A stretch of 64,000 nucleotides of DNA from Candidatus Zixiibacteriota bacterium (GCA_030613505.1 JAUWLW010000007.1:6360-70359); one strand, 5' to 3'. Numbered from the stretch's first letter, positions 9,457 through 43,091 are shown. A program made the numbers and translations. Notes: generated from the sequence alone by a model not told the origin.

Positions 9457-9487
9457 GTTCGTCGGACGCCTAATAGGCGGAGGTAAC

Positions 9488-9859
9488 GTGAAGACCATAG
9501 CTCTTATTCTGTTATCCGTGACGTTGGGCGTCACCGGCCAGATATTCCTGAAACAGGGCGTCTCGGCCGACGGACCTATAACCGGCTTGAACCGGGCTTT
9601 ATTGGTCACGTTTTTTAGGCCGCTGGTCCTTTTGGGCCTATTTTGCTACGGCCTTTCGTCAATATCTTGGCTGGTCGTCTTGAGCCGAACCGAGCTCTCG
9701 TTCGCGTACCCCATGATCGCGCTCGGTTACGTCTTTGTGTTTTTCCTCTCGTGGTGGTTTTTCGGAGAACACGTGACGTGGATAAGAATAGCAGGCTTAT
9801 TCCTTATATGCTTCGGCGTCGTGTTGGTGGCGATTACGAAACCGCCGGGTACTCAATAA
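9488..9859 (+). CDS. Small DMT-superfamily membrane protein (EamA/ArnE-like, 4 TM)
   Basis: 123 aa with a GTG start and four hydrophobic helices, and an ArnE/SMR-like architecture. Confidence 0.6.
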   Translation: MKTIALILLSVTLGVTGQIFLKQGVSADGPITGLNRALLVTFFRPLVLLGLFCYGLSSISWLVVLSRTELSFAYPMIALGYVFVFFLSWWFFGEHVTWIRIAGLFLICFGVVLVAITKPPGTQ

Positions 9860-9860
9860 T

Positions 9861-10544: not shown

Positions 10545-10586
10545 TTTTGAGGTCGTTAACTATTACCAATTAATACGATTAATTAA

Positions 10587-11237: not shown

Positions 11238-11241
11238 CGCC

Positions 11242-12024: not shown

Positions 12025-12051
12025 GGTTGGCTGCGGGAACTTTTTGTTAAA

Positions 12052-13005: not shown

Positions 13006-13039
13006 AGTACTCGGGTCGCCGACTCGTGCGGAGGTAACT

Positions 13040-15168: not shown

Positions 15169-15217
15169 CGAAGCGCGCGTACGCCGAAAGGCCGACGCGC
15201 CGACTTCGGCGTTTCGC

Positions 15218-15607
15218 TTGCAAGATTCGGCGACGAACGGCGGTATACGCGTCACTCCGTTCAAACGGATGGCGTACGTCCTCTCCGGCTTAGCGTACAA
15301 CCGGCACGTGGGGCCGGTCGTGCTTGCCGTCGTAGTCGGCCTCGCCGCGATCGGCTTCCGCGAGCTGGTCCGTTTTTTCAATTTCATTTTACTGGAACGC
15401 GCCTGGGCCGAGGCTACGCCGCCGTACGGCCGCGCTACGTTGCCCGTGATTACCGGCGGCGGCGGATTGGTAGTCGGCCTACTCGTACACTATCTCGCCC
15501 CGGAGGCGAAAGGCTCGGGCATACCGGACGTTATAGGTGCCGCAAAACGGTGGGAATGTGGGCCGAAGGTCGCTAGCCCCGGCCGATCAACGGCCCTAAT
15601 ACTGTGA
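15218..15607 (+). pseudogene. Truncated ClC chloride-channel/antiporter N-terminal fragment (remnant)
   Basis: Encodes ClC helix B-D-like sequence with the selectivity-filter motif GSGIPDV (LAPEAKGSGIPDVIGA), but stops after about 110-129 aa. A full ClC is more than 400 aa. No continuation in any frame, and a CNNM gene starts at 15604. Confidence 0.4.
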
Positions 15608-29836: not shown

Positions 29837-31210
29837 ATGAAAATTATCCAGAGACTGGAACAACGCCAAATAATATCGCAACGACTCCAGCAGTCGCTCC
29901 GCCTCCTCACGTTGAACAATCTGGAAATAGAGGATGCCATCGAAGAAGAATTGGAAACCAACCCGGTCTTGGAATGGGAACCGAGCCTCTCCGTCGGCGA
30001 GAGCGTTCGACCTTCTCTTGCTGAGCGCGTAGAGAATATCGACTGGCAGGATTACTTCGAAAACGCGTCGCGGGGTGGATATTTTGCCGAGAGCGAAGAT
30101 GAGTTCGACCAATTCGCGTCGGCCCCCGGCACGCCCGTTACGTTGGCCGAGTATCTCATGCTTCAACTCGAAGTCTCGGGCGTCACCGATTCGGACTTCG
30201 AACTGGCGGCGGGCATTATTTCGGCGCTCGACCTCGACGGATATTTACGCGTTCCAGTAGCGTCCGTCGCCGAGGAGATGGGTGTAGAGCCGAGCGAAGC
30301 AGCGCGTGTTTTAATCAAAATCGTCCAGAACCTCGAACCCCGCGGGGTGGGCGCGCGCGATCTTAGAGAAGCGCTATTCTTACAATACCAAGAGGTTAGC
30401 GACGAGGCGCCGCCGCTGGCAGGCGTAATAATCGACAAATATTTAGAACAAACCGTAACCAAATCACCGTCGGAGCTAGCGGCCAAATTTAAGGTATCAC
30501 AGCCGGAAGTGGAAGAAGCGATCGATTTCATAAAAAGCCTCGAGCCTCGCCCGGGCAGGGCTTTCGGCGGCGAGACAAACCCGTCCCTAATTCCCGACGT
30601 TCGCATCGAGCTTGTCGCGGGAAACGTCGAAATTACGCTGTTGGACGACAGGGTCGGGCGCCTATACATAAGCCCACGCTACCGCGCGTTGCTGGCCGGC
30701 GACGGCGACCCGGACCAGGAAACCGTTCGCTTTTTAAAAAACCGTTTGACGGCCGCGGCGTCGTTCATCCGCGCCATCCACCAGCGACGCCGCACCCTTG
30801 AGCGGGTGGTCGCCGCTATATTTAAACGCCAACGCGAGTTCCTCGTCGTCGGCGAGCCCGGCCTTAAACCCCTTACGATGGAGGAAATAGCGGAACAAGT
30901 CGGTTTCCACGTCTCTACGGTCTCCCGGGCCGTCGCGCGAAAAGTGGCGGATACGCCCCCGGGCGTTTATCTCTTGAAGTACTTCTTTACGGGACGTGTT
31001 CAGGCGGCCGAAGGGCCGGTATCGGTGAAACGCGTCAAAGCCGTACTGGAAGATATTATCGAGGACGAGAATAAAAACACGCCGCTGTCGGACGAAGAAT
31101 TGGCCGCGGAGCTATCCGAACGCGGCATACGCGTTGCGAGGCGGACGGTCGCGAAGTATCGCCGAGAGCTTAAAATCCCCGGAAAATATGGTAGGATGCA
31201 GAGAGTGTGA
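29837..31210 (+). CDS. rpoN: RNA polymerase sigma-54 factor
   Basis: 457 aa; the N-terminal Gln/Leu-rich region I and the C-terminal RpoN box ARRTVAKYRRELKIP. Confidence 0.9.
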   Translation: MKIIQRLEQRQIISQRLQQSLRLLTLNNLEIEDAIEEELETNPVLEWEPSLSVGESVRPSLAERVENIDWQDYFENASRGGYFAESEDEFDQFASAPGTPVTLAEYLMLQLEVSGVTDSDFELAAGIISALDLDGYLRVPVASVAEEMGVEPSEAARVLIKIVQNLEPRGVGARDLREALFLQYQEVSDEAPPLAGVIIDKYLEQTVTKSPSELAAKFKVSQPEVEEAIDFIKSLEPRPGRAFGGETNPSLIPDVRIELVAGNVEITLLDDRVGRLYISPRYRALLAGDGDPDQETVRFLKNRLTAAASFIRAIHQRRRTLERVVAAIFKRQREFLVVGEPGLKPLTMEEIAEQVGFHVSTVSRAVARKVADTPPGVYLLKYFFTGRVQAAEGPVSVKRVKAVLEDIIEDENKNTPLSDEELAAELSERGIRVARRTVAKYRRELKIPGKYGRMQRV

Positions 31211-32531
31211 CGTAGCCATTGTGGGCGGCGGCCCGGCGGGTTACCCGGCCGCGGTACGTGCCGCCCGGCTCGGCGCCGACGTCGTTTTAGTGGAGACGGG
31301 TCGTTTGGGCGGGACTTGCCTTAACGTCGGCTGTATTCCAACGAAGTTTTATTGCCGGCGCAGCGCTACCGATACCCGTCCCTGGCGCGACGTCGTCGCC
31401 GATAAGGACAAACTGGTCGACGAGCTCGTCGCGGGAATTGAATTCCTGTTCGCAAAGCGCGGCGTAGAGTTCGTACGTGGGCGGGGTCGTCTGGCCGGCG
31501 ACGGCGAGGTTGCCGTCGACGGCGACGCGAATTTCGTAATAAAAGCGCGGAAAGGGATATTGTACGCGCCCGGTTCCGTGACGCTGTCTCTTCCGGTGAT
31601 GCCGGTCGACCACCGGCTCGTCCTGGAGAGCGACGACCTTGTCGATTCGCCGCTCGATTTTAAAAGCCTCGTAGTCGTAGGCGGCGGCGCCATAGGGCTC
31701 GAGTGGGCTACTATATGCCGACGGCGCGGCGTCGAAGTGACCGTGGTAGAGATGATGCCTCAGGTTCTACCGGGGCTCGACGCGGACGTCGCGCGGCGCC
31801 TTGCCGGCCTTATGAAACGCGCAGGCGTCAAGATAATGTTGGACGCCAAAGTAGAGAAGCTGGAAAAGCGCGGCGACGGCGTCGCCGTCTGCCTATCGGA
31901 CGGCCGGGTGCTGGAGGCGGAAAGGGCGCTGTTCGCCGTGGGCCGGCAGGCGAATATCGACGAAGAGGAACTTCGGTCGGTAGGCGTAGAGAGCGACTGT
32001 CGCCGCATCAAAACGACACCGGCGATGGCGACCACGGCCGAAGGCATCTGGGCCGCGGGCGACGCCGCCGGCGTCGGGCCGATGTTGGCGCACGTCGCCA
32101 CTCGGCAAGGCTTAGCGGCGGTGGAGAATATGCTGGGCGGCCACAAAGAGATGGACTACGACCGCGTACCTTGGGCCGTCTTCTCGGACCCGGAGGCGGC
32201 GGGCGTGGGTTTGAACGCGAACCACGCCCGGGAACGCGGCATCGCCGCGCGGGAGGGGAAGGCCGACTACCGGGCGTTGGGGCGCCCGCGCGCCGACGGT
32301 TTCGTCGACGGCTTTTTTAAAATCCTGGCGGTGGAAGAGGACGGTAAGATATTGGGCGCCCACGCCGTCGGCCACGACGCCGCGGAAATCGTCCAAATCG
32401 TGTCCGCGGCTATGGCGTGCAACGCGAGCGTGACTGAGCTTGGTGAATTCATAGCCATACACCCAACGTACGCCGAGCTGGTCGCGGAAGCCTTGGAGGA
32501 CTGGCAGGGCTTGGCGACGCATAAGCCTTAA
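31188..32531 (+). CDS. lpd: Dihydrolipoyl dehydrogenase
   Basis: Redox-active disulfide motif GGTCLNVGCIPTK, an FAD-binding GGGPAGY, and NAD-binding GGGAIGLE. Start at MVGCRECDVAIVGGG (overlaps the rpoN end by 23 nt; the track ORF starts at 31134). Confidence 0.85.
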   Translation: MVGCRECDVAIVGGGPAGYPAAVRAARLGADVVLVETGRLGGTCLNVGCIPTKFYCRRSATDTRPWRDVVADKDKLVDELVAGIEFLFAKRGVEFVRGRGRLAGDGEVAVDGDANFVIKARKGILYAPGSVTLSLPVMPVDHRLVLESDDLVDSPLDFKSLVVVGGGAIGLEWATICRRRGVEVTVVEMMPQVLPGLDADVARRLAGLMKRAGVKIMLDAKVEKLEKRGDGVAVCLSDGRVLEAERALFAVGRQANIDEEELRSVGVESDCRRIKTTPAMATTAEGIWAAGDAAGVGPMLAHVATRQGLAAVENMLGGHKEMDYDRVPWAVFSDPEAAGVGLNANHARERGIAAREGKADYRALGRPRADGFVDGFFKILAVEEDGKILGAHAVGHDAAEIVQIVSAAMACNASVTELGEFIAIHPTYAELVAEALEDWQGLATHKP

Positions 32532-32534
32532 ACT

Positions 32535-33419
32535 TTGCGAACGTACGAGAGCGAACGTATTCCCGCGTGGTTGCGACGGCCCGTAACCGACCGCGTCGGC
32601 CGGGGGCCCGCGCGCCGCGCCGTTGCGGAGGTGAACACCGTATGCCAGGAAGCCCGGTGTCCGAACCGCGGCCGGTGTATGGGGGAGGATAGAACGGCTG
32701 CTTTTCTGCTAATGGGGCCCGGTTGTTCGCGCGATTGCCGGTTTTGCTCGGTGTCGCACGGCCCTAAATTCCTTGACCCGGGGGAGCCGGAGAAAGTCGC
32801 CCGGGCCGCGGCCGCACTCGAGCTGGAGTACGTCGTCCTCACCTCCACTACCCGCGACGACCTGGCCGACGGCGGCGCGGACCACGTAACCGCGACCGTC
32901 GAAGCCGTCCGCGCTACGGTGGCCGACGCCGACGTCGAAGTATTGGCGCCGGACTTCGCGGGGACTCGCCGCTCCGTAAACCGGGTGGCGTCGGCGCCGA
33001 TAGCGGTGTTCGGCCACAACGTCGAGACCGTACCGCGTTTGTACGGCGGCGTTCGGCCGGGAGCCGAATACAAACGGTCGCTAAACGTATTAGCGTGGGC
33101 GGCGGAAGCCGGCGCGTTGACGAAGTCGGCCTTGCTAGTAGGTCTGGGCGAAGAGAAGGATGAAGTTTGCGCCGTTTTACGGGATTTACGGTCGGTCGGC
33201 GTTTCGATCGTCGCGATAGGGCAGTACTTCAGGCCGACCACGCGCCAACTAGCGGTAGCTCGCTTCTGGGGACCTCGAGCTTTCGAGGAACTCGAGGCGA
33301 CGGCACGCACGATGGGCTTCTTGGACGCGGCTTGCGCTCCGTACGTTCGTTCCTCGTACCAGGCCGGTAGCATATATCGCCGCGTAAACGGCGCCCGCCC
33401 GAAATCCGCCGCCGCTTGA
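32535..33419 (+). CDS. lipA: Lipoyl synthase
   Basis: Auxiliary-cluster motif CQEARCPNRGRC and radical-SAM cluster motif CSRDCRFC. Confidence 0.9.
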   Translation: MRTYESERIPAWLRRPVTDRVGRGPARRAVAEVNTVCQEARCPNRGRCMGEDRTAAFLLMGPGCSRDCRFCSVSHGPKFLDPGEPEKVARAAAALELEYVVLTSTTRDDLADGGADHVTATVEAVRATVADADVEVLAPDFAGTRRSVNRVASAPIAVFGHNVETVPRLYGGVRPGAEYKRSLNVLAWAAEAGALTKSALLVGLGEEKDEVCAVLRDLRSVGVSIVAIGQYFRPTTRQLAVARFWGPRAFEELEATARTMGFLDAACAPYVRSSYQAGSIYRRVNGARPKSAAA

Positions 33420-33498
33420 AAATAATACCGTGGCTATGTTAAACTAGGTTCCGGTGACGCCGATTTTTACCCTTTGCCACCGTAATATTTAGCATTAG

Positions 33499-34053
33499 AT
33501 GGAGGTCGTACACGTGGGGTTGCAGATTACCGGGAAGCGCGTCGACGTTACGGACGCGATGAAAATTTATATCGGTAAAAAGATAGGTAAAATTACGAAA
33601 AGGCTTAGGGAAGTCCAGGATGTCATCGTAACGTTGAGGATAGAGAGGTACCATCATATCGCCGAGATTACTATCGTGGCCGACTATTTGACGATAAGGG
33701 GCGAGGGCAATACCGCCGACATGTATTCGTCCATAGATATAGCTTCCAACAAGATCGAAAAACAGATAAGGAAGTACCGCAGTAGGATCCAGAGCCGCCG
33801 CGTTGCACGTCCCGAAAAAATACGCGAGGCCGTTATGACGGTATACGACCATCAGGCCATGGCGAGGGAACAGGACACGCGCGTTATCGTCAGCGTTGAT
33901 AAGATACCGGTGAAACCTATGACCGTGGAGGAAGCGGTCATGGAAATGGATCTAATGAGCCAGGATTTTTTAGTATTTAAAAACGCAGAAACGGATGAGG
34001 TAAGCGTTATCTACCACCGCCGCGACGGCAACATCGGCTTAATTGAACCTTAA
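33499..34053 (+). CDS. hpf: Ribosome hibernation-promoting factor (long form)
   Basis: 184 aa; an N-terminal RaiA/HPF fold and a C-terminal dimerisation extension. Conserved position between rpoN and ptsN. Confidence 0.85.
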   Translation: MEVVHVGLQITGKRVDVTDAMKIYIGKKIGKITKRLREVQDVIVTLRIERYHHIAEITIVADYLTIRGEGNTADMYSSIDIASNKIEKQIRKYRSRIQSRRVARPEKIREAVMTVYDHQAMAREQDTRVIVSVDKIPVKPMTVEEAVMEMDLMSQDFLVFKNAETDEVSVIYHRRDGNIGLIEP

Positions 34054-34113
34054 GGCCGGGACGCTGCCGTCGATGCGCCCTTCGGGCGTACTGAAATGTG
34101 AGGTGACTTAGCC

Positions 34114-34572
34114 GTGAAGATTTCGGATTTCGTCGATCCAAGTGGTATAAAATTGGAGATAGCAGCCCAGGATAAAGACGGTGTCCTCCGTGAGCTCGTC
34201 GCGCTAGCTGCCGAAACCGGCAAAATAAACGACGAATTAGCGATCTTGAAAGCGGTGCGGGAGAGGGAAAACCTGTGCAGTACCGGGTTTGAGAACGGCG
34301 CCGCGATACCGCACCCGCGCCAAGGCCATCCCGACGTCGTCAAAGAATTGGTCGCCGTGTTCGCCCGCTCGTCAGAGGGAATCGACTTCGAAGCGCTCGA
34401 CGAGAAGCCCGTACATTTATTCTTTCTCCTCTGCGCGCCCACTGACAGCGAACATCTCCGGGCGCTGGCTAAGCTTTCGCGCTTCCTCAAAAAGGAAGCC
34501 GTTCGCAAAAGGCTCTTGGAGGCGAAAACGCCGGACGATATATTGGCGGCAATAAAAGAGGAAGAGGTCTAA
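34114..34572 (+). CDS. ptsN: PTS EIIA-Ntr-type nitrogen regulatory protein
   Basis: 152 aa fructose/mannitol-type EIIA fold with the active-site region FENGAAIPHPR; GTG start. Confidence 0.85.
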   Translation: MKISDFVDPSGIKLEIAAQDKDGVLRELVALAAETGKINDELAILKAVRERENLCSTGFENGAAIPHPRQGHPDVVKELVAVFARSSEGIDFEALDEKPVHLFFLLCAPTDSEHLRALAKLSRFLKKEAVRKRLLEAKTPDDILAAIKEEEV

Positions 34573-34579
34573 GGTCCGG

Positions 34580-35605
34580 ATGGCGAGACGCCGGAAGGAG
34601 ATCGTCAACGTCGAAGAATTATCTCTGGGCGGCACGAAGCCGCCCGTCGGCGTAACGGTCGGCGAAATGTTCGCCGAGATGGAGGCGACCCTCAAGTTAT
34701 CCTCGGTCGAGGACAATGGCGGGTTCGACCGGCGCGTGCGCGGCACGGAAATTAACCGGCCGGGTTTGGCCATTGCGGGTTACTTCGATCGTTTTTCGCA
34801 TCGCCAGGTGCAGGTCCTCGGCATGACGGAGCTCTCGTACTTGGCCAGTATAACCGAAAGAAAACGCTCGGATATATTCAACAAAATCACGTCGTACGAC
34901 GGTTTACCTTGCTTCGTTGTCGCGCGCGGACGGAGGCCGCCGCCGGCCCTAAAAGTCTCCGCACGTAATCGGGGAATACCCGTAGCCGTGTCGGGGCGAC
35001 GCACCACTGACGTAATAGCACTCCTCTCCGACCACCTCCGCGACAAGTTCGCCCCCCGGCTGGCCTTTCACGGCGATTTGCTCGACGTCTACGGCGTCGG
35101 CGTTCTTATCCTCGGCCCCGCCGCGGTCGGTAAAAGCGAATGCGCCTTGGATCTAATCGGCCGCGGCCATCGCATCGTTGCCGACGACGTGGTGTACGTG
35201 CGACGCCGCATAACGGGAGAACTCGTCGGCGATACCAAGGAGAGTATTCGCGAACATATAGAAATACGCGGTTTAGGCGTACTGAACGTCAAGCAATTAT
35301 TCGGCATCCGTGCCGTCCGCAAGTCGAAGAACGTGGAGCTTATCGTAAAGATCGAATTGCTGGACCCCAAAGAGGATTACGACCGTACGGGGCTCGACAG
35401 GACGGTCGTCAACATCCTCGGCATTGAAGCCCCTTTCATCGTTATTCCAGTGGTACCGGGTAAAAGCATTTCGTCGCTCGTAGAAGTCGCGGCGCTGGAC
35501 TATCTATTGAAGCGTTACGGCTTCGACGCCGCCCGCGTTTTTAACGAAAAACTACGCGCCGAAATCGCCACCAACTACCAGCCGGATAAAAAAGGAAAAC
35601 CATGA
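34580..35605 (+). CDS. hprK: HPr kinase/phosphorylase
   Basis: P-loop GPAAVGKSE and a C-terminal catalytic domain with the HIEIRGLGVLNV signature. Confidence 0.9.
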   Translation: MARRRKEIVNVEELSLGGTKPPVGVTVGEMFAEMEATLKLSSVEDNGGFDRRVRGTEINRPGLAIAGYFDRFSHRQVQVLGMTELSYLASITERKRSDIFNKITSYDGLPCFVVARGRRPPPALKVSARNRGIPVAVSGRRTTDVIALLSDHLRDKFAPRLAFHGDLLDVYGVGVLILGPAAVGKSECALDLIGRGHRIVADDVVYVRRRITGELVGDTKESIREHIEIRGLGVLNVKQLFGIRAVRKSKNVELIVKIELLDPKEDYDRTGLDRTVVNILGIEAPFIVIPVVPGKSISSLVEVAALDYLLKRYGFDAARVFNEKLRAEIATNYQPDKKGKP

Positions 35606-36024
35606 CCGGAATCATAATCGTCGCCCACGGCGAGTTGGCCGGCGAGCTAGTAAATTCGGTCGCAATGATAATGGGACGCGTTCCCTTGTTGCGGGCCGTA
35701 GGTCTCGGCAGCGACCAGAGCCTGGACGACTTAAAGCGCGAAATTGAAGAGGCGTGGCAAGAGCTCGAGCGCGGAGGCGCCCGACAGATCCTGGTCTTGG
35801 TCGACATGTTCGGCGGCTCTTGCTCGAACGTAGCGGCGCGTCTCGTCTGCGACAGCGAACCGGGGCAAATCGCCGTCGTAACGGGCGTTAACCTTCCCAT
35901 GGTTTTGGAGGCGTCCATCGACCGCGACCTGTATCAATTGAAGGATTTAGTGGATAAGGTAGTGAAAGCCGGTAGGAAATCCATCGTCGACGTCCGGGCC
36001 GTTCTGGCCGAAAAACTCCGTTAA
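35602..36024 (+). CDS. PTS mannose/fructose/sorbose-family EIIA component
   Basis: MTGIIIVAHGELAGEL (active-site His10-type EIIA-Man N-terminus); 140 aa. Confidence 0.8.
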   Translation: MTGIIIVAHGELAGELVNSVAMIMGRVPLLRAVGLGSDQSLDDLKREIEEAWQELERGGARQILVLVDMFGGSCSNVAARLVCDSEPGQIAVVTGVNLPMVLEASIDRDLYQLKDLVDKVVKAGRKSIVDVRAVLAEKLR

Positions 36025-36047
36025 GTGACGTCGAGCGTCCGTTAAAG

Positions 36048-36533
36048 ATGGGCGTCTTATTGTACAGGGTAGACGACCGTTTGATACACGGCCAGGTCGT
36101 CGTCGGTTGGGGGCGTTTTCTAAAGATCAATTCTATACTGGTATGCAGTGAACGGGTAGCGGACGACGAATTGGCTCGTACGATGATGGAGATGGGCGCG
36201 CCGGCGGACGTCAAGGTAGAGGTGCTACGGCCGAAGGAGGCCGCGGCGAAGCTCAACCGCGACGCCTTCGCCGAGCGCGACGCCATCGTACTTTTCGAAA
36301 CGCCGGCCGACGCCCTCTACCTTTTAAATATGAACGTAAAAATCGAGAAGTTAAACATCGGCGGTATGCACTTCCGCCCCGGGAAACGGCAGATAATGGA
36401 AAGCGTTTCGGTGGACAAAGAAGACTGCCGGGCGCTCCACGAACTCTCCGCCCGGAACGTCGAGGTTTACTTCCAGATGGTACCGCAAGCCCGGCCGGTA
36501 GAGATCATTTCGAAGCTGCCGTGCGACCTATGA
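36048..36533 (+). CDS. PTS mannose-family EIIB component
   Basis: LYRVDDRLIHGQVVVGW is the EIIB-Man active-site His motif. Confidence 0.85.
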   Translation: MGVLLYRVDDRLIHGQVVVGWGRFLKINSILVCSERVADDELARTMMEMGAPADVKVEVLRPKEAAAKLNRDAFAERDAIVLFETPADALYLLNMNVKIEKLNIGGMHFRPGKRQIMESVSVDKEDCRALHELSARNVEVYFQMVPQARPVEIISKLPCDL

Positions 36534-38611
36534 ACGGCCCGCCGTCGAGGCTGAGCGAAACGTTTGGAGAGCGGGACGGGCGGTTAATATTCGCCTTCGC
36601 GGTACACGACCATCAACCCGTCGGCAACTTCCCGGAAGTCGTAGCGCGCGTTCACGAACGTGCGTACGCACCCTTCTTCGAAGTCGTAAAGCGGCACCCC
36701 TGCGTCAAGTTCTCGCTTCATATATCGGGGGCCTTATTAGAGTGGATGGAGAGCGAAGCGCCGGACGCGGTTACCGCGATCAGGGAAATGGTGGCGGAAG
36801 GACAGTGCGAAATACTGACGGGCACGTATTACGAAGCCCTTGCGCCGGTGGCACCCGAGCACGACGTTAAAAGCTCGATCGTCGCGTACGCCGCCAAATT
36901 AGCGAACGTTTTCGGCGCTGAAACCGGGGGAATGTGGCTTGCCGAAAGGGTTTACGAGCCGCACTTGCCGAGCATCTTGGCCGACGCCAACGTACGCTAT
37001 ACGGCCTTGGACGATTGGCATTTTCGGACCGCGGGGATCGCGCCCGACGAGCTCGACCGTCCGTGGTTGGCCGAGCACCAGGGCGCGACCGTGACGGCGT
37101 GCCCCATATCGGAACGCTTGCGGTACTCGGTACCGTTCGCACCGGCGGGCGAAGTTATCGGTTACCTCAGAGAATTATACGAAGCGGGGGCGCGGATGGC
37201 GTGCCTCGCCGACGACGGCGAAAAATTCGGCGAGTGGCCCGGCACTCATAAACTCTGCTACGAGGACGGTTGGTTGGACGCATTCTTCGCGGCGCTAGCT
37301 GACAACGGCGATTGGCTGCGCGTAACAACGTTGGGAGAGGCGGTCGCCGCCGTACCCGCCGCGGGCCCCGCGTACCTTCCGGCAACCTCATACCGAGAGA
37401 TGACGCGTTGGGCCTTGCCGACCGAAACGCAGCGGCGCCTCGAGCGATTGGGGCCCGACTTTGCCGCCAGCGACCTGGTTACGGGGGGCGGGTTCCGCTC
37501 TTTCTTCCAGAAGTACGCCGAAGTTAACTTCTTCCACAAGCGAGTCCAAGAAGTTAGTCGGCGTTTGGAAGAGGTAGACGACCGCCCCGATATGCAAGCG
37601 GACCGGATCCGGCGCCACCTTTGGCGGGCGGAAGCCAACGATGCCTATTGGCACGGTGTCTTCGGCGGCTTCTACTTACCGCATCTCCGCCGGGGCGTTA
37701 AAAACGAACTCGTCCGCGCCGAAGAGATGCTCGACCATTATTTAGGAACTTCGGCGAGCGAGCAAATAGGCGACTTGGACGCAGACGGCGTGGCCGAAAT
37801 CACGTTGAAGAACGAAAACGTCGTGGCTGTGCTTACGGCACAGGGTTTAGCGGCGGTGGAATTCACGCGGCGTTCGCCGCCGGCCGTTCTGACCGACGTT
37901 CCGGCCAGGCGCCCCGAACCTTATCACGATAAGCTGGTAGCGCTCGAAGACGGCGGCGACGGCGCGCCGAAGACAATACACGCGCCGCACCGTGTCAAAG
38001 AATCCGGCCTTGAAAATTACCTCATTTACGACCGGCATCCTAAAAGGTTATTCCTGGAGCGCCTGTTCGAAGGCGATGCGGACGCCGAGGCGTACGCGCG
38101 CGAGGATGCGGCTGAGTTCGTACCGTTTTCGTGGGGTAGGCCTGTTCGAGACGCCGGCGGTTGGCGCGTCCGCGGCGCGCTTAACGCCAGGCCGCGCGCG
38201 ACGGTAGAAGTGGATAAAAAAATCGCGCTATCCGAACGGGGCCTTGCTTTGAACTACCTATTTTCCACGAAACTCTCTAAGCCGACGATCCTTGGGATAG
38301 AATTAACTTTAAATATTAGGTCCGAATCGCCTGGTCACGCGTTTCTTAGAAGCCGTGGCGAGTTCGGGTGTAACGACGTTTTCGCGGCTCCCGAAGAGAC
38401 AGCGTTCGTGATAGCCGACCGCCTCGCCGAATGGGAGATAACTTTAACGCTCGAGCCCGCCTACGCGCTGTGGCACGCGCCGATATATACCGTCAATCGT
38501 TCAGAGTGCGGTTTCGAAAAGGTTTACCAAGGGTCGTCTTTTTTCTTTTGGCGGCGGCAACCGGAAGGCGATAGCAGCTTCGAAAGTAGCATCGCATTAA
38601 AGGTCAGCTGA
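36521..38611 (+). CDS. Glycoside hydrolase family 57 (alpha-glucan-active; amylase/4-alpha-glucanotransferase-like) with C-terminal extension
   Basis: GH57 region I FAVHDHQP, the nucleophile region GGMWLAERVYEP, the acid/base region ADDGEKFGEWPG, and no signal peptide. It overlaps the EIIB stop and ends 5 nt before EIIC. Confidence 0.75.
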   Translation: MRPMNGPPSRLSETFGERDGRLIFAFAVHDHQPVGNFPEVVARVHERAYAPFFEVVKRHPCVKFSLHISGALLEWMESEAPDAVTAIREMVAEGQCEILTGTYYEALAPVAPEHDVKSSIVAYAAKLANVFGAETGGMWLAERVYEPHLPSILADANVRYTALDDWHFRTAGIAPDELDRPWLAEHQGATVTACPISERLRYSVPFAPAGEVIGYLRELYEAGARMACLADDGEKFGEWPGTHKLCYEDGWLDAFFAALADNGDWLRVTTLGEAVAAVPAAGPAYLPATSYREMTRWALPTETQRRLERLGPDFAASDLVTGGGFRSFFQKYAEVNFFHKRVQEVSRRLEEVDDRPDMQADRIRRHLWRAEANDAYWHGVFGGFYLPHLRRGVKNELVRAEEMLDHYLGTSASEQIGDLDADGVAEITLKNENVVAVLTAQGLAAVEFTRRSPPAVLTDVPARRPEPYHDKLVALEDGGDGAPKTIHAPHRVKESGLENYLIYDRHPKRLFLERLFEGDADAEAYAREDAAEFVPFSWGRPVRDAGGWRVRGALNARPRATVEVDKKIALSERGLALNYLFSTKLSKPTILGIELTLNIRSESPGHAFLRSRGEFGCNDVFAAPEETAFVIADRLAEWEITLTLEPAYALWHAPIYTVNRSECGFEKVYQGSSFFFWRRQPEGDSSFESSIALKVS

Positions 38612-38615
38612 GGAA

Positions 38616-39332
38616 ATGTTAGAGGGGTTCGTATTATTGGCGTGCGCGGAACGGGCGATTTGCGTCGCGTTCGTCGGCGCTCTATTAGGGTTGGATAACA
38701 TCGCCATAGGCCAATTTATGTTGGCGCAACCGGCGGTAGGCGCCGTTTTAGTCGGCTATATGGTGGGCGAGCCGTTGTTGGGCGTGTGGGCGGCGTTAAC
38801 GTTCCAACTTCTATGGTTGGGCCAGATCCCCGTCGGCGCATACGTTCCGCCAAGCGCACCGATTACGGCCATTGCCGCGGTCGGTTTGGCCGGGCCCTCG
38901 GCGGCGCCGTTGCCGGCTCGAGCGGTCGCGGCGGCGTTCCTCGCTATACCGGTCGGCGTATTGGCGGGCAAGCTGGATTTTTGGATTAAAAGCCGAAACG
39001 TCGGCATTTTGCACCGGAGCGAGAACGATTTGCTAGACGGTAGGCCGCTCGCGCTCGGCGGCGCGGTTATAAAAGGCGTGGCGAATTTTTTCTTGAAAGA
39101 CTTTTTCCTCCTGCTTGTGGCAATCTTCGTCGGCTCGGCGTTGCTCACGTTGGCGTTAAGGCACATAACGCCGGGTTGGTACCCCGGCTTGGAGCTCGCG
39201 TTCGTAATTTCGCCCGCCGTGGGCATCGGCGCCGCGTTGAAGGTTTACTGGAAGGCCCGGAACCTGGCGGCTTTCGGCGTCGGCGCCGTAGTCGCGGCCG
39301 CCGTCGCCTTTATATTCTCGTTCTTAATATGA
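38616..39332 (+). CDS. PTS mannose-family EIIC component
   Basis: 238 aa polytopic membrane protein with EIIC-Man-like topology and a Gly-rich loop. Confidence 0.8.
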   Translation: MLEGFVLLACAERAICVAFVGALLGLDNIAIGQFMLAQPAVGAVLVGYMVGEPLLGVWAALTFQLLWLGQIPVGAYVPPSAPITAIAAVGLAGPSAAPLPARAVAAAFLAIPVGVLAGKLDFWIKSRNVGILHRSENDLLDGRPLALGGAVIKGVANFFLKDFFLLLVAIFVGSALLTLALRHITPGWYPGLELAFVISPAVGIGAALKVYWKARNLAAFGVGAVVAAAVAFIFSFLI

Positions 39333-40108
39333 AACGCACGAGACAGCAGGGTGACCCGCCGTTGCCGCGCCGCACGCGCGCGGAGATGATAATCCGTTCG
39401 TTGTTCATCCAGGCTACGAACAATTTCGAGCGTATGCTGTCGTTGGGATTTTTATTCGCGCTATGGCCGGTGGTGAAGAGGTTATACCGTACACCCGAAA
39501 AGCGTCGAGAAGTCGTGATCAGGCATCTATCTTTTTTTAATACGCAGCCGTACTTCGCGAATTGTATTTTGGGCGTCGTAGCACATGTCGAGCTCGACCG
39601 CGGCGAGAACTTGAACGTTGAGGTTGCGAATATAAAAAACGCCATGATGGGTGCTCTCGGCGCTCTGGGCGACGACTTGTTCTGGACGGGCCTGATGCCT
39701 GCGGCGGCTTTATTAGCGCTGGTTTTTTACGGCGCTCTGCCGGGCTACGCCCTCGTCGGCGCGATCTCGGCGCTAGTTGTATATAACGTCTTCCATTTTT
39801 GGGCGAGGATAAAGCTCTTTAACGTGGGCCTGAGACTCGGTCGCAGGGTAACGAGTTATCTGAAAATGCTTCGCCTTCCTCGTTTTGCCGTGAGCGTCAA
39901 AGTAGTCGCTTCATTTCTTTTGGGGGCGTTTACGGTGGCCGTAATGTGGCGTGCAATACAAACCGGCTTCGGAGGTTTCGGAGCCGCGGCGGCGGTGGGC
40001 GGCGCCGTGCTCGCGTCGGTAGTCGTCCAAAGTTTAGGCGTTAAGCCGGGGCTGTGTTGGTACCTGGTGGCCGCGGCCGCGACGGTCGTGGGAGTGCTGA
40101 CGGCGTAG
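39329..40108 (+). CDS. PTS mannose-family EIID component
   Basis: ATG overlapping the EIIC stop (ATGA). RHLSFFNTQPYFANCILGVVAHVE matches the EIID-Man signature. The track ORF from 39176 is over-extended. Confidence 0.8.
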   Translation: MKRTRQQGDPPLPRRTRAEMIIRSLFIQATNNFERMLSLGFLFALWPVVKRLYRTPEKRREVVIRHLSFFNTQPYFANCILGVVAHVELDRGENLNVEVANIKNAMMGALGALGDDLFWTGLMPAAALLALVFYGALPGYALVGAISALVVYNVFHFWARIKLFNVGLRLGRRVTSYLKMLRLPRFAVSVKVVASFLLGAFTVAVMWRAIQTGFGGFGAAAAVGGAVLASVVVQSLGVKPGLCWYLVAAAATVVGVLTA

Positions 40109-40113
40109 GTCTT

Positions 40114-40383
40114 ATGGCGGCGATTCGTAAAAAGGTTACGGTTCAGCAAAAGTACGGCTTACACGCGCGCCCGGCGTCGTCGTTCGTGAAGCTTGCCCGT
40201 GTATTCGAAGCCGACATAATACTGGAAAAGAATGGCGAGCGCGTCAACGGCAAATCTATTATGGGCGTCATGATGTTGGCCGTGTCCCGGGGCGAAACGG
40301 TATACCTGGAAGTGGATGGTCCCGACAGGGAGCGCGCGTGCGAACGGCTTAAATCATTTCTGGAAGACGGTACCGACGAGTAA
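40114..40383 (+). CDS. ptsH: Phosphocarrier protein HPr
   Basis: GLHARPAS active-site His15 motif and a Ser46 region (NGKSIMGVMML); 89 aa from MAAIRKK. Confidence 0.85.
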   Translation: MAAIRKKVTVQQKYGLHARPASSFVKLARVFEADIILEKNGERVNGKSIMGVMMLAVSRGETVYLEVDGPDRERACERLKSFLEDGTDE

Positions 40384-40389
40384 CTAGAC

Positions 40390-42141
40390 GTGAGAGAGTT
40401 TACAGGCATTCCGGCAAGTGGCGGCGTAGCGCTTGGTAGAGCGTTCGTCGTAGCCCCGCGCGAGCTGACGGTCGAGCGGCGCGATATAGCCCTCGACGAG
40501 GTCGAGGCGGAACAAATGCGGCTGGAGCGGGCGCTCGCCGTAACGCGCGACGAGTTCGCGTCGCTGCGGGACGAGGTCAAAAAACACGAGGCGTCGATAC
40601 GGGCCGAGATATTGGACGCGTACATGTTGGTACTGGACGACGAAATGCTGACCGAAAAAGCTCGCGATATGATCCGCGAAGATAGGGTATCGGCCGAGTA
40701 CGCGTTCAAAACGACGCTCGACGAAATGCTCGTGGTCTTTGAGGCTATGGAAGACCCGTACTTCCGCGAGCGCGCCGTAGATTTGCGGGGCGTCGGCAAC
40801 CGCGTCGTAATGAACCTTCTGGGCGTGGCCTACCGTCTTTTCGAGGACGTTAGTGATAATTCGATACTCGTGGCCCACGACCTGCCGCCCTCCGACGCGG
40901 CCGCGCTGCCGCGCGAAAAAGTCGGCGCCATCGTTACCGAAGTCGGTAGCCGGACATCCCACACCGCGATTATAGCCCGCAGCATGGAGGTGCCGGCGGT
41001 AGTAGGCGCCGACGGCGTCGTTGGTTACGTCCGCGCGGGAGACAGTTTGGTCGTGGACGGCATAAACGGGCGCGTTGTCGTAAACCCGACCGACGAGGTC
41101 GAGGCGAGCTACGAGGAATTGGGGCGCGAACTATTGGCGGAAGAAAAACGCCGCGCCCGAGTGGCAGAACTCCCCGCAACGACGCTCGACGGATACCGGA
41201 TAGAGCTCTCGGCTAATATCGAACTCTTAGCCGAACTCGAAGCCGTAGCACGCCACGGCTGCGACGGCGTCGGCTTGTACCGTACGGAGTTCTTATTCCT
41301 GCACCGGAGCGACTTGCCGTCCGAAGAGGAACAACTGGACGCGTATCGGAAAGTAGCCGAGGCCTCCTTTCCGCACTCCTGCATTATCAGAACCATCGAC
41401 ATCGGCGGCGATAAGTTTTTATCTTTTCCCGAGGTGGCTCGTGAGATCAACCCTTTCCTCGGCTTACGCGCGATACGGTTTTGCCTCAAGCGCCGGGATA
41501 TATTCCGGACGCAACTTCGCGCTATCTTGCGAACTACCGCGTACGGGAAAGTAAAGATTATGTTTCCCATGATTTCCGACGTGGAGGAACTGCGCACCGC
41601 CAAAGAAATTCTGGCGGACGTTAAGCGCGAGCTCGAGCGGGAAGGGCGTTTCGTCGACGAAGCGCTCGAAGTGGGCATTATGGTCGAGGTCCCGTCGGCG
41701 GCGCTCAGCGCCGACTTATTGGCCCAGGAGTGCGACTTCTTCAGCTTGGGTACCAACGACTTAATCCAATACACTTTGGCGGTCGACCGGGGCAACGAAA
41801 AAATCGCCTATCTATACGAGCCCTTTCACCCCGCGGTACTGAAGCTTATAAAAACAACCGCCGACGCCGCCCATCGTAATAGTATATGGATAGGTATATG
41901 CGGCGAAATGATCGCGGACCCCAAAGCGGCCATACTTTTGTTGGGCCTGTCCTTCGACGAATTCAGCGCGAGCCCGGCTTCCGTTCCGGATATCAAGATA
42001 GCCTTGAGGGCTGCGCGGTACGTCGACGCGCGCCGGGTCGCCGAACGGGCAGTCACAATGACGTCAGCTTCTGAGATTCGGTCTTTTTTAACCCGCGAGC
42101 TAGCCGAAATGGGCGTACCGGCGGTTCGATGCCAATGGTAA
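40390..42141 (+). CDS. ptsI: Phosphoenolpyruvate-protein phosphotransferase (Enzyme I)
   Basis: 583 aa with the phosphohistidine domain GSRTSHTAIIARSMEVPAVVG and a C-terminal PEP-utilising domain (GICGEM); GTG start. Confidence 0.9.
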   Translation: MREFTGIPASGGVALGRAFVVAPRELTVERRDIALDEVEAEQMRLERALAVTRDEFASLRDEVKKHEASIRAEILDAYMLVLDDEMLTEKARDMIREDRVSAEYAFKTTLDEMLVVFEAMEDPYFRERAVDLRGVGNRVVMNLLGVAYRLFEDVSDNSILVAHDLPPSDAAALPREKVGAIVTEVGSRTSHTAIIARSMEVPAVVGADGVVGYVRAGDSLVVDGINGRVVVNPTDEVEASYEELGRELLAEEKRRARVAELPATTLDGYRIELSANIELLAELEAVARHGCDGVGLYRTEFLFLHRSDLPSEEEQLDAYRKVAEASFPHSCIIRTIDIGGDKFLSFPEVAREINPFLGLRAIRFCLKRRDIFRTQLRAILRTTAYGKVKIMFPMISDVEELRTAKEILADVKRELEREGRFVDEALEVGIMVEVPSAALSADLLAQECDFFSLGTNDLIQYTLAVDRGNEKIAYLYEPFHPAVLKLIKTTADAAHRNSIWIGICGEMIADPKAAILLLGLSFDEFSASPASVPDIKIALRAARYVDARRVAERAVTMTSASEIRSFLTRELAEMGVPAVRCQW

Positions 42142-43091
42142 ATAAAGCTCTATATATTTCGTTGGCGTTGGCCGCTTTGGCCTGCCGCAGCGACCTGCTC
42201 TTGGGCAAGGTCGAGGGCGTGGCTGCCAATATTTACGCCCCCAACGGCCGGACGCCGGCTTACCGCGCGGAAGTCGCGGTCGCCGACGTCAAGCCGGGTG
42301 GCTACTACGGCGAGGCCGTTACGTCGGCCAGCGGTTATTTCACTATAACTGTCATACCCGACGGGTCATACCGCGCTAACGTAACCTCGCCGAACGGCTT
42401 GTTAAAAAGCAATTTCCACGCCGACGTCGTCGACGGCTATTCGGCGGGCGGCGTCGAAGTGTTACTGGCGCCGGCGAGAGCCGGTACGTTCGTTAACGTC
42501 CCTGGCCGTTATGACGATATGGGGACGATCTTCGTAGACCTCGGCTACCGATATAAAACCCTCGGCGTAGAAGCGCTCGCCCAAAAGCAAAACCCGTTGC
42601 GGGGCGCGGACATAGTGTGCCTCAACAGCGGCGTCGATACGACGTGGGCTCAGAACGAGACGGTTATTAAGAACTTAAAATCGTTCGTGGAAAAGGGAGG
42701 GCGCCTGATAGCGACGGATCAAGCGTGGCCGTTTGTCAAGGCTTCGTGGCCGGGGAAAGTAACCTGGCCGACCGACCCGGCCGTAGGGAGTCCGTATCAA
42801 GACGTCGAGGGGGCATTCGTCGACGCCGACCTAAAAAGATGCGCTGCGGTTCCGAGGTGGCGGTTAAGGTACGACCTGGGGAACTGGGCCGTCCCGACCG
42901 ATACGACAGGTACGGTTTTCGTTCGCGGCGACGTCGAAACGACGTCCGGCAAAAGGGCCAACGCGCCGTTGCTCATCGGATTTGGATACGGCCGCGGCTT
43001 CGTCTCCTTCGGCACGTTCGATTGGCGAACGCAATATCGGCATGGCCGGCTGGCGACCCGCGTCTTTAACTATCTTATAACTAATAAGTAA
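42129..43091 (+). CDS. Secreted hypothetical protein (N-terminal CarboxypepD_reg-like beta-sandwich)
   Basis: Signal peptide ALYISLALAALAC; the SGYFTITVIPDGSYRANV motif is typical of carboxypeptidase-regulatory-like domains. Confidence 0.55.
   Translation: MPMVNKALYISLALAALACRSDLLLGKVEGVAANIYAPNGRTPAYRAEVAVADVKPGGYYGEAVTSASGYFTITVIPDGSYRANVTSPNGLLKSNFHADVVDGYSAGGVEVLLAPARAGTFVNVPGRYDDMGTIFVDLGYRYKTLGVEALAQKQNPLRGADIVCLNSGVDTTWAQNETVIKNLKSFVEKGGRLIATDQAWPFVKASWPGKVTWPTDPAVGSPYQDVEGAFVDADLKRCAAVPRWRLRYDLGNWAVPTDTTGTVFVRGDVETTSGKRANAPLLIGFGYGRGFVSFGTFDWRTQYRHGRLATRVFNYLITNK

Follow-up and report, generated by a model that had tools for sequence, protein, structure and literature searches.

A gene for an alpha-glucan-active enzyme of family GH57 is situated inside a mannose-class phosphotransferase system (PTS) operon, between the genes for EIIB and EIIC, in the stretch of 64,000 nucleotides of a Candidatus Zixiibacteriota bacterium considered in the current analysis and referred to as the window. 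This location raises the question whether the enzyme is a genuine member of the operon, which type of GH57 enzyme it represents and in what manner alpha-glucan metabolism could be connected with the PTS. The features identified in the region are listed in Table 1.

Table 1. Features of the rpoN-linked PTS region of the window and the basis of their assignment.
Feature	Coordinates	Strand	Basis
rpoN (sigma-54)	29837..31210	+	ORF; tblastn; Sigma54_AID/CBD/DBD in the syntenic gene of L001, L002, L004
Dihydrolipoyl-dehydrogenase-like gene (lpd)	31134..32531	+	ORF; Pyr_redox_2/Pyr_redox_dim in syntenic genes
Radical-SAM gene	32535..33419	+	ORF; Radical_SAM in syntenic genes
Candidate sigma-70-like promoter, 79-nt lipA-hpf gap	33416..33445	+	Consensus match only, 9/12 positions; site counts not above shuffles
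hpf, long-form ribosome hibernation factor	33499..34053	+	Ribosomal_S30AE and Ribosom_S30AE_C; TIGR00741 above cutoff
ptsN-like EIIA (fructose/Ntr class)	34114..34572	+	PTS_EIIA_2, 124.6 bits; histidine motif AIPHPR
hprK, HPr(Ser) kinase/phosphorylase	34580..35605	+	Hpr_kinase_N and Hpr_kinase_C; TIGR00679, 320.6 bits, cutoff 240
EIIA, mannose class	35602..36024	+	EIIA-man, 83.8 bits; His9 in motif IIVAHGELA
EIIB, mannose/sorbose class	36048..36533	+	PTSIIB_sorb, 162.2 bits; phosphorylatable His in motif RVDDRLIHGQVV
GH57, 4-alpha-glucanotransferase-type, 693 aa	36530..38611 (alternative start GTG 36521)	+	PF03065, PF09094 and PF09095; 1K1W match
EIIC, mannose class	38616..39332	+	EII-Sor, 70.4 bits
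EIID, mannose class	39329..40108	+	EIID-AGA, 139.6 bits; alignment
ptsH (HPr)	40114..40383	+	PTS-HPr, 99.3 bits; TIGR01003 above cutoff; His15 in GLHARPA, Ser46 in NGKSIMG
ptsI (Enzyme I)	40390..42141	+	PEP-utilisers_N, PEP-utilizers and PEP-utilizers_C; TIGR01417, 621 bits
320-aa conserved ORF	42129..43091	+	13-nt overlap with ptsI stop; hydrophobic N-terminus; no firm family; weak CarboxypepD_reg match
glgA, glycogen synthase (context, outside operon)	62359..63834	-	Glyco_transf_5 and Glycos_transf_1

The ten genes hpf, ptsN, hprK, EIIA-Man, EIIB-Man, GH57, EIIC, EIID, ptsH and ptsI, which a sequence-only reading of the window had listed in this order, have all been recovered in their places from the ORFs and the Pfam and NCBIfam matches as one tight block on the + strand, with every intergenic gap being at most 60 nt. 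The hprK/IIA and IIC/IID junctions are ATGA overlaps, and the remaining spacings are 23 nt (IIA/IIB), 4 nt (GH57/IIC, where GAGGAA spans the GH57 stop), 5 nt (IID/ptsH) and 6 nt (ptsH/ptsI). The start of the GH57 gene is more likely to be the ATG at 36530 than the GTG at 36521, as the former yields a product of 693 residues, identical in length to a homologue of 93% identity (P0001), and makes the gene overlap the EIIB stop by 4 nt (ATGA). The GH57/EIIC and EIIC/EIID junctions are as described earlier, but the length of 696 residues and the 13-nt EIIB/GH57 overlap assume the less likely GTG. Since both junctions of GH57 are overlaps or 4-nt gaps, there is no room for a separate promoter or terminator, and a scan for such sites, with counts equal to those of shuffled sequence, has revealed none flanking GH57. 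This layout shows GH57 to be an integral cistron, predicted to be translationally coupled, of the rpoN-linked PTS operon hpf-ptsN-hprK-IIA-IIB-GH57-IIC-IID-ptsH-ptsI, in keeping with the membership proposed before.

The 79-nt lipA-hpf gap is the sole notable intergenic space 5' of the PTS block. The radical-SAM gene preceding it is read as lipA by its position beside lpd, and the conserved order of the cluster, with rpoN near its head, is lptB-rpoN-lpd-lipA-hpf-ptsN-hprK-PTS; the presence of lpd and lipA between rpoN and hpf (31134..33419) is specific to a Coatesbacteria-like clade. The 320-residue ORF is probably the final cistron of the block, and its homologues follow ptsI in L002, L007, L169 and L170. 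The phosphorylatable His is present in IIA, IIB and HPr, as is Ser46 of HPr. All the EII proteins score below the substrate-specific cutoffs of NCBIfam, and the ptsN-like protein scores below its PtsN equivalog cutoffs.

The N-terminus of the GH57 protein (MNGPPSRLSETFGERDG...) has no hydrophobic signal-like segment, and the motifs HDHQP, WLAE (as WLAERV) and DDGEKFG pointed out earlier are present. The protein is comprised of three domains (Glyco_hydro_57, AmyA-A_glucT_m and AmyA-gluTrfs_C) and matches the 4-alpha-glucanotransferase of Thermococcus litoralis (TLGT, 1K1W) over its full length (residues 21-675, E 3e-104). All five signature regions are present with both catalytic residues, the nucleophile Glu139 in WLAERV and the proton donor Asp229 in ADDGEKFG, and with the Lys at logo position 23 that marks the 4-alpha-glucanotransferase subfamily (PMC6037648). 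These features identify a predicted cytoplasmic, catalytically equipped 4-alpha-glucanotransferase, an enzyme type that acts on maltodextrins by disproportionation. The branching-enzyme and amylopullulanase clades, named earlier as possible homes for the protein, are excluded, as the domains, the 1K1W match and the signature regions fit the 4-alpha-glucanotransferases. Collinear full-length homology, the three domains, the signature regions, the Glu/Asp pair and the subfamily Lys are shared with TLGT, Pyrococcus furiosus PF0272 and Dictyoglomus thermophilum AmyA, and the predicted cytoplasmic location with the archaeal enzymes, which are used in maltose/maltodextrin metabolism; about one third of the residues, by eye from the alignment, are identical to those of TLGT. 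Unlike these known enzymes, the one in the window belongs to a mesophilic-type uncultured bacterium, is encoded in a PTS operon and has an activity predicted from sequence.

An rpoN-linked PTS cluster of the form rpoN-hpf-ptsN-hprK-(rapZ)-IIA-Man-ptsH-ptsI has been proposed to be ancestral in Proteobacteria, and that of Desulfovibrio vulgaris contains a full mannose-class EII (Comas et al. 2008, PMC2405797). The window shares with it the backbone genes, their order and a full IIA/IIB/IIC/IID set between hprK and ptsH-ptsI, but differs in that the EII set is interrupted by GH57 after IIB and before IIC, rapZ is absent, lpd-lipA lie between rpoN and hpf, and the lineage is a Coatesbacteria-like candidate phylum. 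The available part of PMC2405797 makes no mention of a glycoside hydrolase or transferase cistron in this cluster, and none of the papers found mentions a GH57 cistron in an rpoN-linked PTS operon. The complete mannose-family PTS with an inserted GH57 gene thus stands as an arrangement, but its backbone has already been described and only the insert is new.

The sigma-54 dependent levDEFG-sacC levanase operon of Bacillus subtilis also combines a mannose-class PTS with a glycoside hydrolase; SacC, however, is secreted and encoded at the end of the operon, whereas the GH57 of the window is cytoplasmic and encoded between IIB and IIC. A streptococcal mannose-class PTS imports an unsaturated hyaluronan disaccharide for a cytoplasmic unsaturated glucuronyl hydrolase, UGL (PMC6837340). 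The common element is a poly- or oligosaccharide-cleaving enzyme co-transcribed, in the window by prediction, with mannose-class IIA/IIB/IIC/IID, but UGL acts on the imported disaccharide whereas the window encodes an alpha-1,4-glucan transferase, and the window operon holds general and regulatory PTS genes in addition.

The gene order of the window is identical in L002-L007, L009, L010, L169 and L170 of the Coatesbacteria-like clade, with GH57 identities of 93-40%, and the IIB-GH57-IIC slot has also been identified in an Eisenbacteria MAG (L018), in another MAG and in many metagenome contigs, with L052 among these loci. Relatives thus retain GH57 together with the PTS genes, contrary to what the sequence-only reading had named as evidence against its proposal. 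Among 45 informative loci seeded with EIID, the slot is filled by GH57 in 19 and empty in 26, and the insert is therefore optional. The junctions are short in nearly all the filled loci, and separate subclades, each well supported, still have this order and its coupled junctions at GH57 identities of 32-45%. The dN/dS of GH57 is 0.13-0.20. As several uncultured lineages of deep divergence have GH57 in this same slot, the arrangement represents a conserved though dispensable module and no chance insertion; two relatives have deletion scars of GH57 next to intact PTS genes, so the PTS can do without it.

GH57 genes are also found beside PTS genes without EIIC/EIID. Omnitrophota encode a tight operon ptsN-yvcK-GH57-ptsH-ptsI in which GH57 overlaps or abuts yvcK and ptsH, a Zixibacteria contig has the order hprK-IIA-IIB-mlaD-like-GH57, and in Rokubacteria GH57 follows rpoN-hpf. 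The genes rapZ and/or yvcK occur within the same block in the relatives found here. Unrelated genes flank the free GH57 orthologues of KSB1, Acidobacteriota, Thermotogota and Planctomycetota, and neither a residue signature dividing PTS-embedded from free GH57s nor an extra conserved His has been found.

The active site is complete in most PTS-embedded copies. The nucleophile Glu is absent in 3 of the 337 aligned homologues (P0019, P0036 and P0037), all of them PTS-embedded, and P0036 and P0037 have two more changes in CSR-4, where Glu replaces the Asp that precedes the proton donor and Ala replaces the Glu that follows it. Only two independent events underlie the nucleophile losses, and the single-residue difference of P0019 could be a sequencing error. 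The three proteins resemble the '4-alpha-glucanotransferase-like' GH57 proteins without catalytic residues (Martinovicova & Janecek 2018, PMC6037648), from which the window's GH57, catalytically complete by sequence, differs; the three copies in the PTS slot nest in a clade of otherwise intact enzymes, and the compared pair (L007/L169) has a dN/dS of 0.19, the same as the intact copies, indicating purifying selection. Catalytic glucose release cannot account for this selection, since the pair is devoid of the nucleophile.

The function of the arrangement is proposed tentatively. That alpha-glucan turnover is coupled to the PTS, through glucose salvage, sensing or both, is plausible at somewhat less than an even chance; the identity of the enzyme, its operon membership and the recurrence of the slot are much more secure than this mechanism. 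Glucose and mannose are the typical substrates of mannose-class EIIs. GH57 4-alpha-glucanotransferases liberate glucose from maltooligosaccharides (PMC9582752; bioRxiv 10.1101/2023.08.25.554913). Maltodextrins from the cell's own glycogen or from uptake would be disproportionated by GH57 with release of free glucose, which the mannose-class EII would phosphorylate with PEP through EI, HPr, IIA and IIB, and the glucose-6-phosphate would enter glycolysis. As PTS phosphorylation is normally tied to import and the enzyme is cytoplasmic, this salvage would require either leakage and recapture of glucose or its phosphorylation from inside. Every glucose would drain phosphoryl groups off HPr and the EIIA proteins, and the module would thereby inform the regulatory branch formed by HprK and PtsN, whose genes lie directly upstream, that reserve glucan is being mobilised. 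A gene for a bifunctional phosphoglucose/phosphomannose isomerase after ptsI in L018 (378 bits, cutoff 295), with tblastn matches after ptsI in many EIID-seeded loci, points to a hexose-6-phosphate as the product of the PTS. The glgA gene, cited earlier at 62.4-63.8 kb in favour of such a coupling, is present but 20 kb away and outside the operon; it shows that the organism can make glycogen and adds little more.

The tight operons with phosphorelay genes but no EIIC/EIID in Omnitrophota, Zixibacteria and Rokubacteria argue against salvage, as do the two GH57 deletions that left the PTS in place. Together with the nucleophile-less copies, these operons are no less compatible with a regulatory link than with one through uptake. 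GH57 could serve the phosphorelay as client or adaptor, being bound or phosphorylated by HPr, IIA or IIB or itself gating the EII, such that the PTS phosphorylation state controls alpha-glucan turnover or glucan status is sensed, with a glucan-binding non-catalytic role alone left in some lineages. The exclusive occurrence of nucleophile-less copies in the PTS slot, the selection on them and the regulatory character of the rest of the cluster (rpoN, hpf, ptsN and hprK, with rapZ or yvcK in relatives) agree with this possibility. HPr of E. coli likewise regulates and His-phosphorylates the glycogen phosphorylase GlgP (PMC13324651; PMC11046441), an earlier example of glycogen turnover under the control of the phosphorelay in which a PTS phosphocarrier is linked to an alpha-glucan enzyme. 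That link is one between proteins whose genes lie far from each other, and GlgP belongs to family GT35, whereas in the window an operon-level link to a GH57 enzyme is read from the genes. The complete active site of most embedded copies, the lack of a PTS-specific signature or extra His and the few, partly doubtful, nucleophile losses weigh against a regulatory partnership, which is considered rather unlikely.

Still less likely, the cluster rpoN-hpf-ptsN-hprK-PTS could be an operon of carbon and energy status that captured a glycogen-turnover gene once or a few times and keeps it for convenience of expression, with no direct metabolic or physical tie to the EII. The ease with which the insert is lost, its varying position within the cluster in other phyla, the unrelated neighbours of the free orthologues and the missing sequence signature are all consistent with mere co-expression, but the exact coupled order in strongly diverged subclades would be unusual if neutral, and the selection on nucleophile-less copies suggests a slot-specific role. 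The import of an alpha-glucoside (e.g. maltose or short maltodextrins) or of some other oligosaccharide through EIIC/EIID, for processing, possibly in phosphorylated form, by GH57 in the manner of the streptococcal hyaluronan-disaccharide PTS, is improbable. It has a precedent in that cytoplasmic hydrolase, and the placement of GH57 between EII genes and the distance of EIIC and EIID from every substrate-typed NCBIfam model are in its favour. Operons with this EIIC/EIID subfamily but without GH57 are, however, common, two of them by recent deletion, which shows that the transporter works without GH57; the downstream isomerase and the variants without EIIC/EIID also argue against such a substrate. 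To our knowledge, no mannose-class PTS for alpha-glucosides and no GH57 4-alpha-glucanotransferase accepting 6-phospho-sugars has been described.

The recurrence of the GH57-PTS arrangement across several uncultured phyla points to a previously undescribed link of the turnover of stored glucan with PTS transport and signalling.

A gene encoding a predicted GH57 4-alpha-glucanotransferase has been identified between the IIB and IIC genes of a block of ten ORFs on the forward strand, extending from hpf to ptsI. The Pfam assignments of all ten products agree with the gene names proposed in the sequence-only reading. The hpf product has both the N- and C-terminal S30AE domains and, like HPr and Enzyme I, scores at or above the curated NCBIfam cutoff. 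It is followed by an EIIA_2/PtsN-like protein assigned from Pfam and by HprK, which has both HprK domains in Pfam and exceeds the cutoff of TIGR00679. EIIA-man (PF03610, His9 in VAHGELA), EIIB (PTSIIB_sorb, PF03830, His14 in DDRLIHGQ), IIC (EII-Sor, PF03609) and IID (EIID-AGA, PF03613) are all above the gathering scores and are encoded as separate proteins of a mannose-class PTS Enzyme II (TC 4.A.6). The phosphorylatable histidines of IIA and IIB are also kept in relatives. Both motifs required for HprK control are present in HPr (His15 in GLHARPA and Ser46 in NGKSIMG), in addition to HprK itself. None of the EII components reaches a substrate-typed NCBIfam model (ManXYZ, Aga, sorbose and others), all the scores being far below the cutoff, as exemplified by IIC (38.5 against 300) and IID (101.9 against 292.75).

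The GH57 gene is a member of this operon. The largest intergenic gap from hpf to ptsI is at most 60 nt, ATGA overlaps are found at hprK/IIA and at IIC/IID, and 4 nt separate the GH57 stop from the IIC start, with a GAGGAA spanning the GH57 stop. The sequence-only reading had placed the start at a GTG (36521) with a 13-nt overlap with EIIB. The in-frame ATG at 36530 gives a protein of 693 aa, the length of a homologue of 93% identity (P0001), and an ATGA overlap with the EIIB stop; the GTG is therefore probably not the real start. Promoter- and terminator-like sites occur at the frequency observed in shuffled sequence and none flanks the GH57 gene; a promoter or terminator of its own, which that reading had named as evidence against itself, is rejected. 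No sigma-54 -24/-12 site was found in the cluster, and Rfam and tRNA scans gave only three tRNAs, all distant from the block, with no Rfam element within it. The glgA gene that had been linked to the system is real; it is situated on the minus strand at a distance of 20 kb and is rejected as an operon partner.

An ORF of 320 aa, hydrophobic at its N-terminus, shares 13 nt with the end of ptsI and may close the operon as its last cistron. Its sole family match, to CarboxypepD_reg, is weak, and the ORF is kept after ptsI in L002, L007, L169 and L170, four of the homologous loci. Upstream, rpoN and hpf are separated by an insertion of dihydrolipoyl dehydrogenase-like (lpd) and lipA-like radical-SAM genes, of which lpd overlaps rpoN by 77 nt if a TTG start is taken. 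This insertion is kept across the Coatesbacteria-like clade, and other phyla that share the backbone lack it.

Coordinates of the features described in the window and in homologous loci (L, loci in other genomes or metagenomes; P, GH57 homologue proteins)
Sequence	Feature	Position	Strand	Remark
Window	hpf to ptsI block	33499-42141	+	ten ORFs
Window	GH57 gene	36530-38611	+	693 aa
Window	ORF after ptsI	42129-43091		320 aa
Window	lpd-lipA insertion	31134-33419
Window	CNNM/CorC-type (CBS domain) transporter genes	15604-18066		two tandem paralogues
Window	class-II aminoacyl-tRNA synthetase gene	13876-15168		430 aa
L001	truncated GH57 region	10001-13300		CP070633.1
L007	GH57, P0037	1863-3905		WVARGV, E to R
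L169	GH57, P0036	8001-10043		WVVQGV, E to Q
L170	GH57, P0019	3688-5745		WLAGRV, E to G
L007	phosphotransacetylase and acetate kinase genes	8538-12938		after PTS block
L169	phosphotransacetylase and acetate kinase genes	14814-17854		after PTS block
L090	IIB-IIC spacer	7037-7287		251 nt
L095	IIB-IIC spacer	7012-7206
L149	ORF between GH57 and IIC	6526-7158		210 aa; also L150
L036	Omnitrophota locus	8152-15730		also L042, L046
L065	Rokubacteria/Methylomirabilota locus	7103-14734		also L014, L030-L032, L038-L040, L044, L049, L055, L059, L067, L070, L082, L083, L087
L172	Zixibacteria SM1_73 locus	529-8139

The GH57 product belongs to the 4-alpha-glucanotransferase subfamily and has an intact active site. 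Residues 21-675 align with the solved structure 1K1W of the Thermococcus litoralis enzyme (TLGT) with an E-value of 3e-104. The three-domain architecture of the subfamily is present (Glyco_hydro_57, AmyA-A_glucT_m and the C-terminal AmyA-gluTrfs_C, PF09095, with 130.9 bits over residues 418-684), and the full-length alignment with 1K1W together with PF03065 and PF09094 suggests a fold comprising a (beta/alpha)7 barrel and a helical bundle. All five conserved sequence regions (CSR-1 to CSR-5) defined for the CAZy family GH57 (PMC6037648) are present: HDHQP at residue 26, GQCEIL at 91, WLAERV at 136, ADDGEKFGEW at 227 and AEANDAYWH at 367. The nucleophile Glu139 in CSR-3 and the proton donor Asp229 in CSR-4 align with WLTERV and HDDGEKFG of TLGT; over 337 aligned homologues the first position is E in 331 and the second D in all 337. 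Lys232 in ADDGEKFG corresponds to logo position 23 in CSR-4, where lysine is described by Martinovicova and Janecek (PMC6037648) as a mark of 4-alpha-glucanotransferases. The architecture, this lysine and the match to 1K1W rule out a branching enzyme, an amylopullulanase or an alpha-amylase. Inspection of the N-terminus revealed no signal-like segment, and the enzyme is therefore predicted to be cytoplasmic and of the amylomaltase-like disproportionating type (EC 2.4.1.25), by its sequence an ordinary member of its subfamily.

The closest GH57 homologues constitute a clade spanning 93% to 40% identity that includes a closed Candidatus Coatesbacteria genome. The order lptB-rpoN-lpd-lipA-hpf-ptsN-hprK-IIA-IIB-GH57-IIC-IID-ptsH-ptsI has been observed in all the contigs read (L002/L003, L004/L005, L006, L007, L009, L010, L169 and L170), and GH57 is thus kept with the PTS genes in relatives down to 40% identity, contrary to the refuting case named in the sequence-only reading. 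The GH57 of the closed genome (L001) ends prematurely at 517 aa. Beyond it, in inverted orientation, come a class-II aminoacyl-tRNA synthetase gene shortened to 346 aa, as against 430 aa in the window, and an IS200-type Y1 transposase; IIC, IID, ptsH and ptsI are not adjacent. The cut GH57, the inverted synthetase fragment and the transposase indicate that the operon is broken there, which suggests either an inversion associated with the IS element or a fault of the assembly.

A screen of 80 GTDB loci holding GH57 4-alpha-glucanotransferase homologues revealed that most are without PTS neighbours (Acidobacteriota, Thermotogota, Planctomycetota, Dictyoglomota and Syntrophia), and the copy in KSB1 genomes is likewise free of PTS genes. 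The order IIA-IIB-GH57-IIC-IID-ptsH is also encoded in an Eisenbacteria MAG (L018) and in MAG L052, both with rapZ upstream, as in many of the EIID-seeded loci described below; in L018 a gene for a bifunctional phosphoglucose/phosphomannose isomerase follows ptsI. Three Omnitrophota loci have abutting genes in the order ptsN-yvcK-GH57-ptsH-ptsI-pgi-nucleotidyltransferase, the last two encoding a cupin-type glucose-6-P isomerase and a sugar-1-P nucleotidyltransferase, with no EII genes within the locus. In Zixibacteria SM1_73 (L172) the order is rpoN-hpf-hprK-IIA-IIB-MlaD/Mce-like-GH57, and no IIC, IID, ptsH or ptsI is present downstream, so GH57 stays there with the soluble EII parts. The order in Rokubacteria/Methylomirabilota is rpoN-hpf-orf-GH57-metK; in seventeen loci of this group GH57 is found about 0.9 kb downstream of rpoN-hpf, past a 265-aa ORF without a Pfam match, and in L065 metK and ahcY lie downstream of GH57.

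For an unbiased estimate of frequency, a metagenome scan took an EIID alignment, rather than GH57, as its seed. It revealed a widespread backbone, rpoN-hpf-ptsN-hprK-(rapZ)-(yvcK)-IIA-IIB-[GH57]-IIC-IID-ptsH-ptsI-(pgi/pmi), in which the slot between IIB and IIC, where both genes were visible, is occupied by GH57 in 19 of 45 loci and not in the other 26. Nearly all the filled slots have short junctions. The largest metagenomic GH57-containing group (L125-L151) has Zixibacteria and KSB1 as its nearest named relatives, at about 50% identity. An extra ORF follows GH57 in one group; that of L149, found in one sub-lineage of an AT-rich metagenomic group, looks from its sequence like a methyltransferase. 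The IIB-GH57-IIC slot recurs across deep lineages, and the arrangement noticed in the window is both real and more general than could be seen there, being found in several candidate phyla.

In a neighbour-joining tree of Enzyme I, one large clade is entirely GH57-minus and the other is mostly GH57-plus with nested minus loci. Two of these nested loci bear deletion scars. One is the sister of the window (L090/L091), with an hprK 84% identical, in whose IIB-IIC spacer GH57 residues 18-44 and 661-692 survive as collinear remnants. In the spacer of the other, L095, sister to L007, part of the C-terminus of GH57 is retained, together with a weak trace of the N-terminus. Each scar corresponds to an independent internal deletion of about 1.9 kb that left the PTS genes on both sides intact; GH57 has therefore been lost at least twice and is dispensable. 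The GH57 neighbour-joining tree (200 bootstraps) supports subclades at 100%, while its deep nodes and the overall monophyly of the PTS-embedded copies are unsupported.

The nucleophile Glu is missing in three of the 337 aligned homologues, all of them PTS-embedded, full length and in the usual slot (P0019, P0036 and P0037). P0036 and P0037 share two further changes in CSR-4, where the Asp before the proton donor is replaced by Glu and the Glu after it by Ala. The dN/dS of this GH57 pair (L007 against L169) is 0.19 with dS of 0.41, compared with 0.13-0.20 for intact GH57 pairs and 0.03-0.14 for the neighbouring PTS genes, values that indicate purifying selection on GH57. This selection argues for a role independent of the canonical nucleophile, at least in the L007/L169 lineage, although the losses amount to only two independent events and that in P0019 affects a single residue.

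Glycoside hydrolases are often encoded in PTS operons, and the enzyme is then usually a phospho-sugar hydrolase, a secreted polysaccharidase, as in the lev operon of B. subtilis, or a hydrolase of an imported disaccharide. Unlike levanase-type operons, in which an exported hydrolase frees the PTS substrate outside the cell, the GH57 of the window is without a signal-peptide-like N-terminus. The backbone is the rpoN-linked PTS cluster described by Comas et al. (PMC2405797), in which a single strand carries rpoN, ptsN, hprK, IIA-Man, ptsH and ptsI as a group; these authors report a full mannose-class EII in the Desulfovibrio vulgaris cluster, suggested to be ancestral. In many clusters described there rapZ/yhbJ lies between hprK/ptsN and IIA-Man, whereas hprK of the window overlaps IIA-Man directly. 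The backbone and the enzyme subfamily are thus already known. Literature searches on GH57 with PTS and on DUF1925/DUF1926 gave no description of their combination, in which a cistron for a cytoplasmic alpha-glucan transferase recurs between IIB and IIC in several candidate phyla.

We favour a metabolic coupling of GH57 and the PTS with a consequence for sensing, the manner of cooperation being inferred. The transferase would release glucose from glycogen-derived maltodextrins, and the mannose-class EII would phosphorylate it with PEP as donor. The glucose-6-P would enter glycolysis, a step assisted by the pgi/pmi gene that many relatives carry behind ptsI, and the drain on P~HPr and P~EIIA would inform the HprK/PtsN branch. 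Mere co-expression of GH57 with the PTS genes is another possible explanation, as is the import of an alpha-glucoside by the PTS and its subsequent processing by GH57, for which the streptococcal hyaluronan-disaccharide PTS (PMC6837340) is a precedent.

The main rival is a direct regulatory partnership of GH57 with the phosphorelay. It is favoured by the weak points of metabolic coupling, namely the cytoplasmic origin of the glucose, which poses a problem of topology, the location of GH57 beside phosphorelay genes without a transporter (Omnitrophota and Zixibacteria L172) and the nucleophile-less copies, and it has a precedent in the interaction of E. coli HPr with glycogen phosphorylase (PMC13324651, PMC11046441). 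However, no sequence signature divides embedded from free GH57s: the residue comparison gave three weak PTS-specific positions and no extra conserved His in the embedded copies, and such a signature is rejected. We regard it as rather unlikely that GH57 is a direct client of the phosphorelay, either bound or phosphorylated by HPr, IIA or IIB or docking on EII, with the rpoN-linked PTS of several candidate phyla sensing and controlling reserve alpha-glucan and GH57 in some lineages already a non-catalytic glucan-binding regulator.

Many bacteria that are not known to grow on PTS sugars possess an rpoN-linked PTS, a system whose function is a question of long standing. The retention of GH57 inside it leads to a testable hypothesis that the system handles or senses glucose from the storage glucan of the cell itself, and provides a handle on its function in non-model phyla. 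Natural comparison sets and controls are available in the intact enzymes, in the copies that have lost the nucleophile yet remain under selection, and in the close relatives with clean deletion scars. Operon-level coupling of PTS and glycogen would thereby be extended to phyla known almost only from metagenomes, namely Coatesbacteria-like bacteria, Eisenbacteria, Omnitrophota and Zixibacteria.
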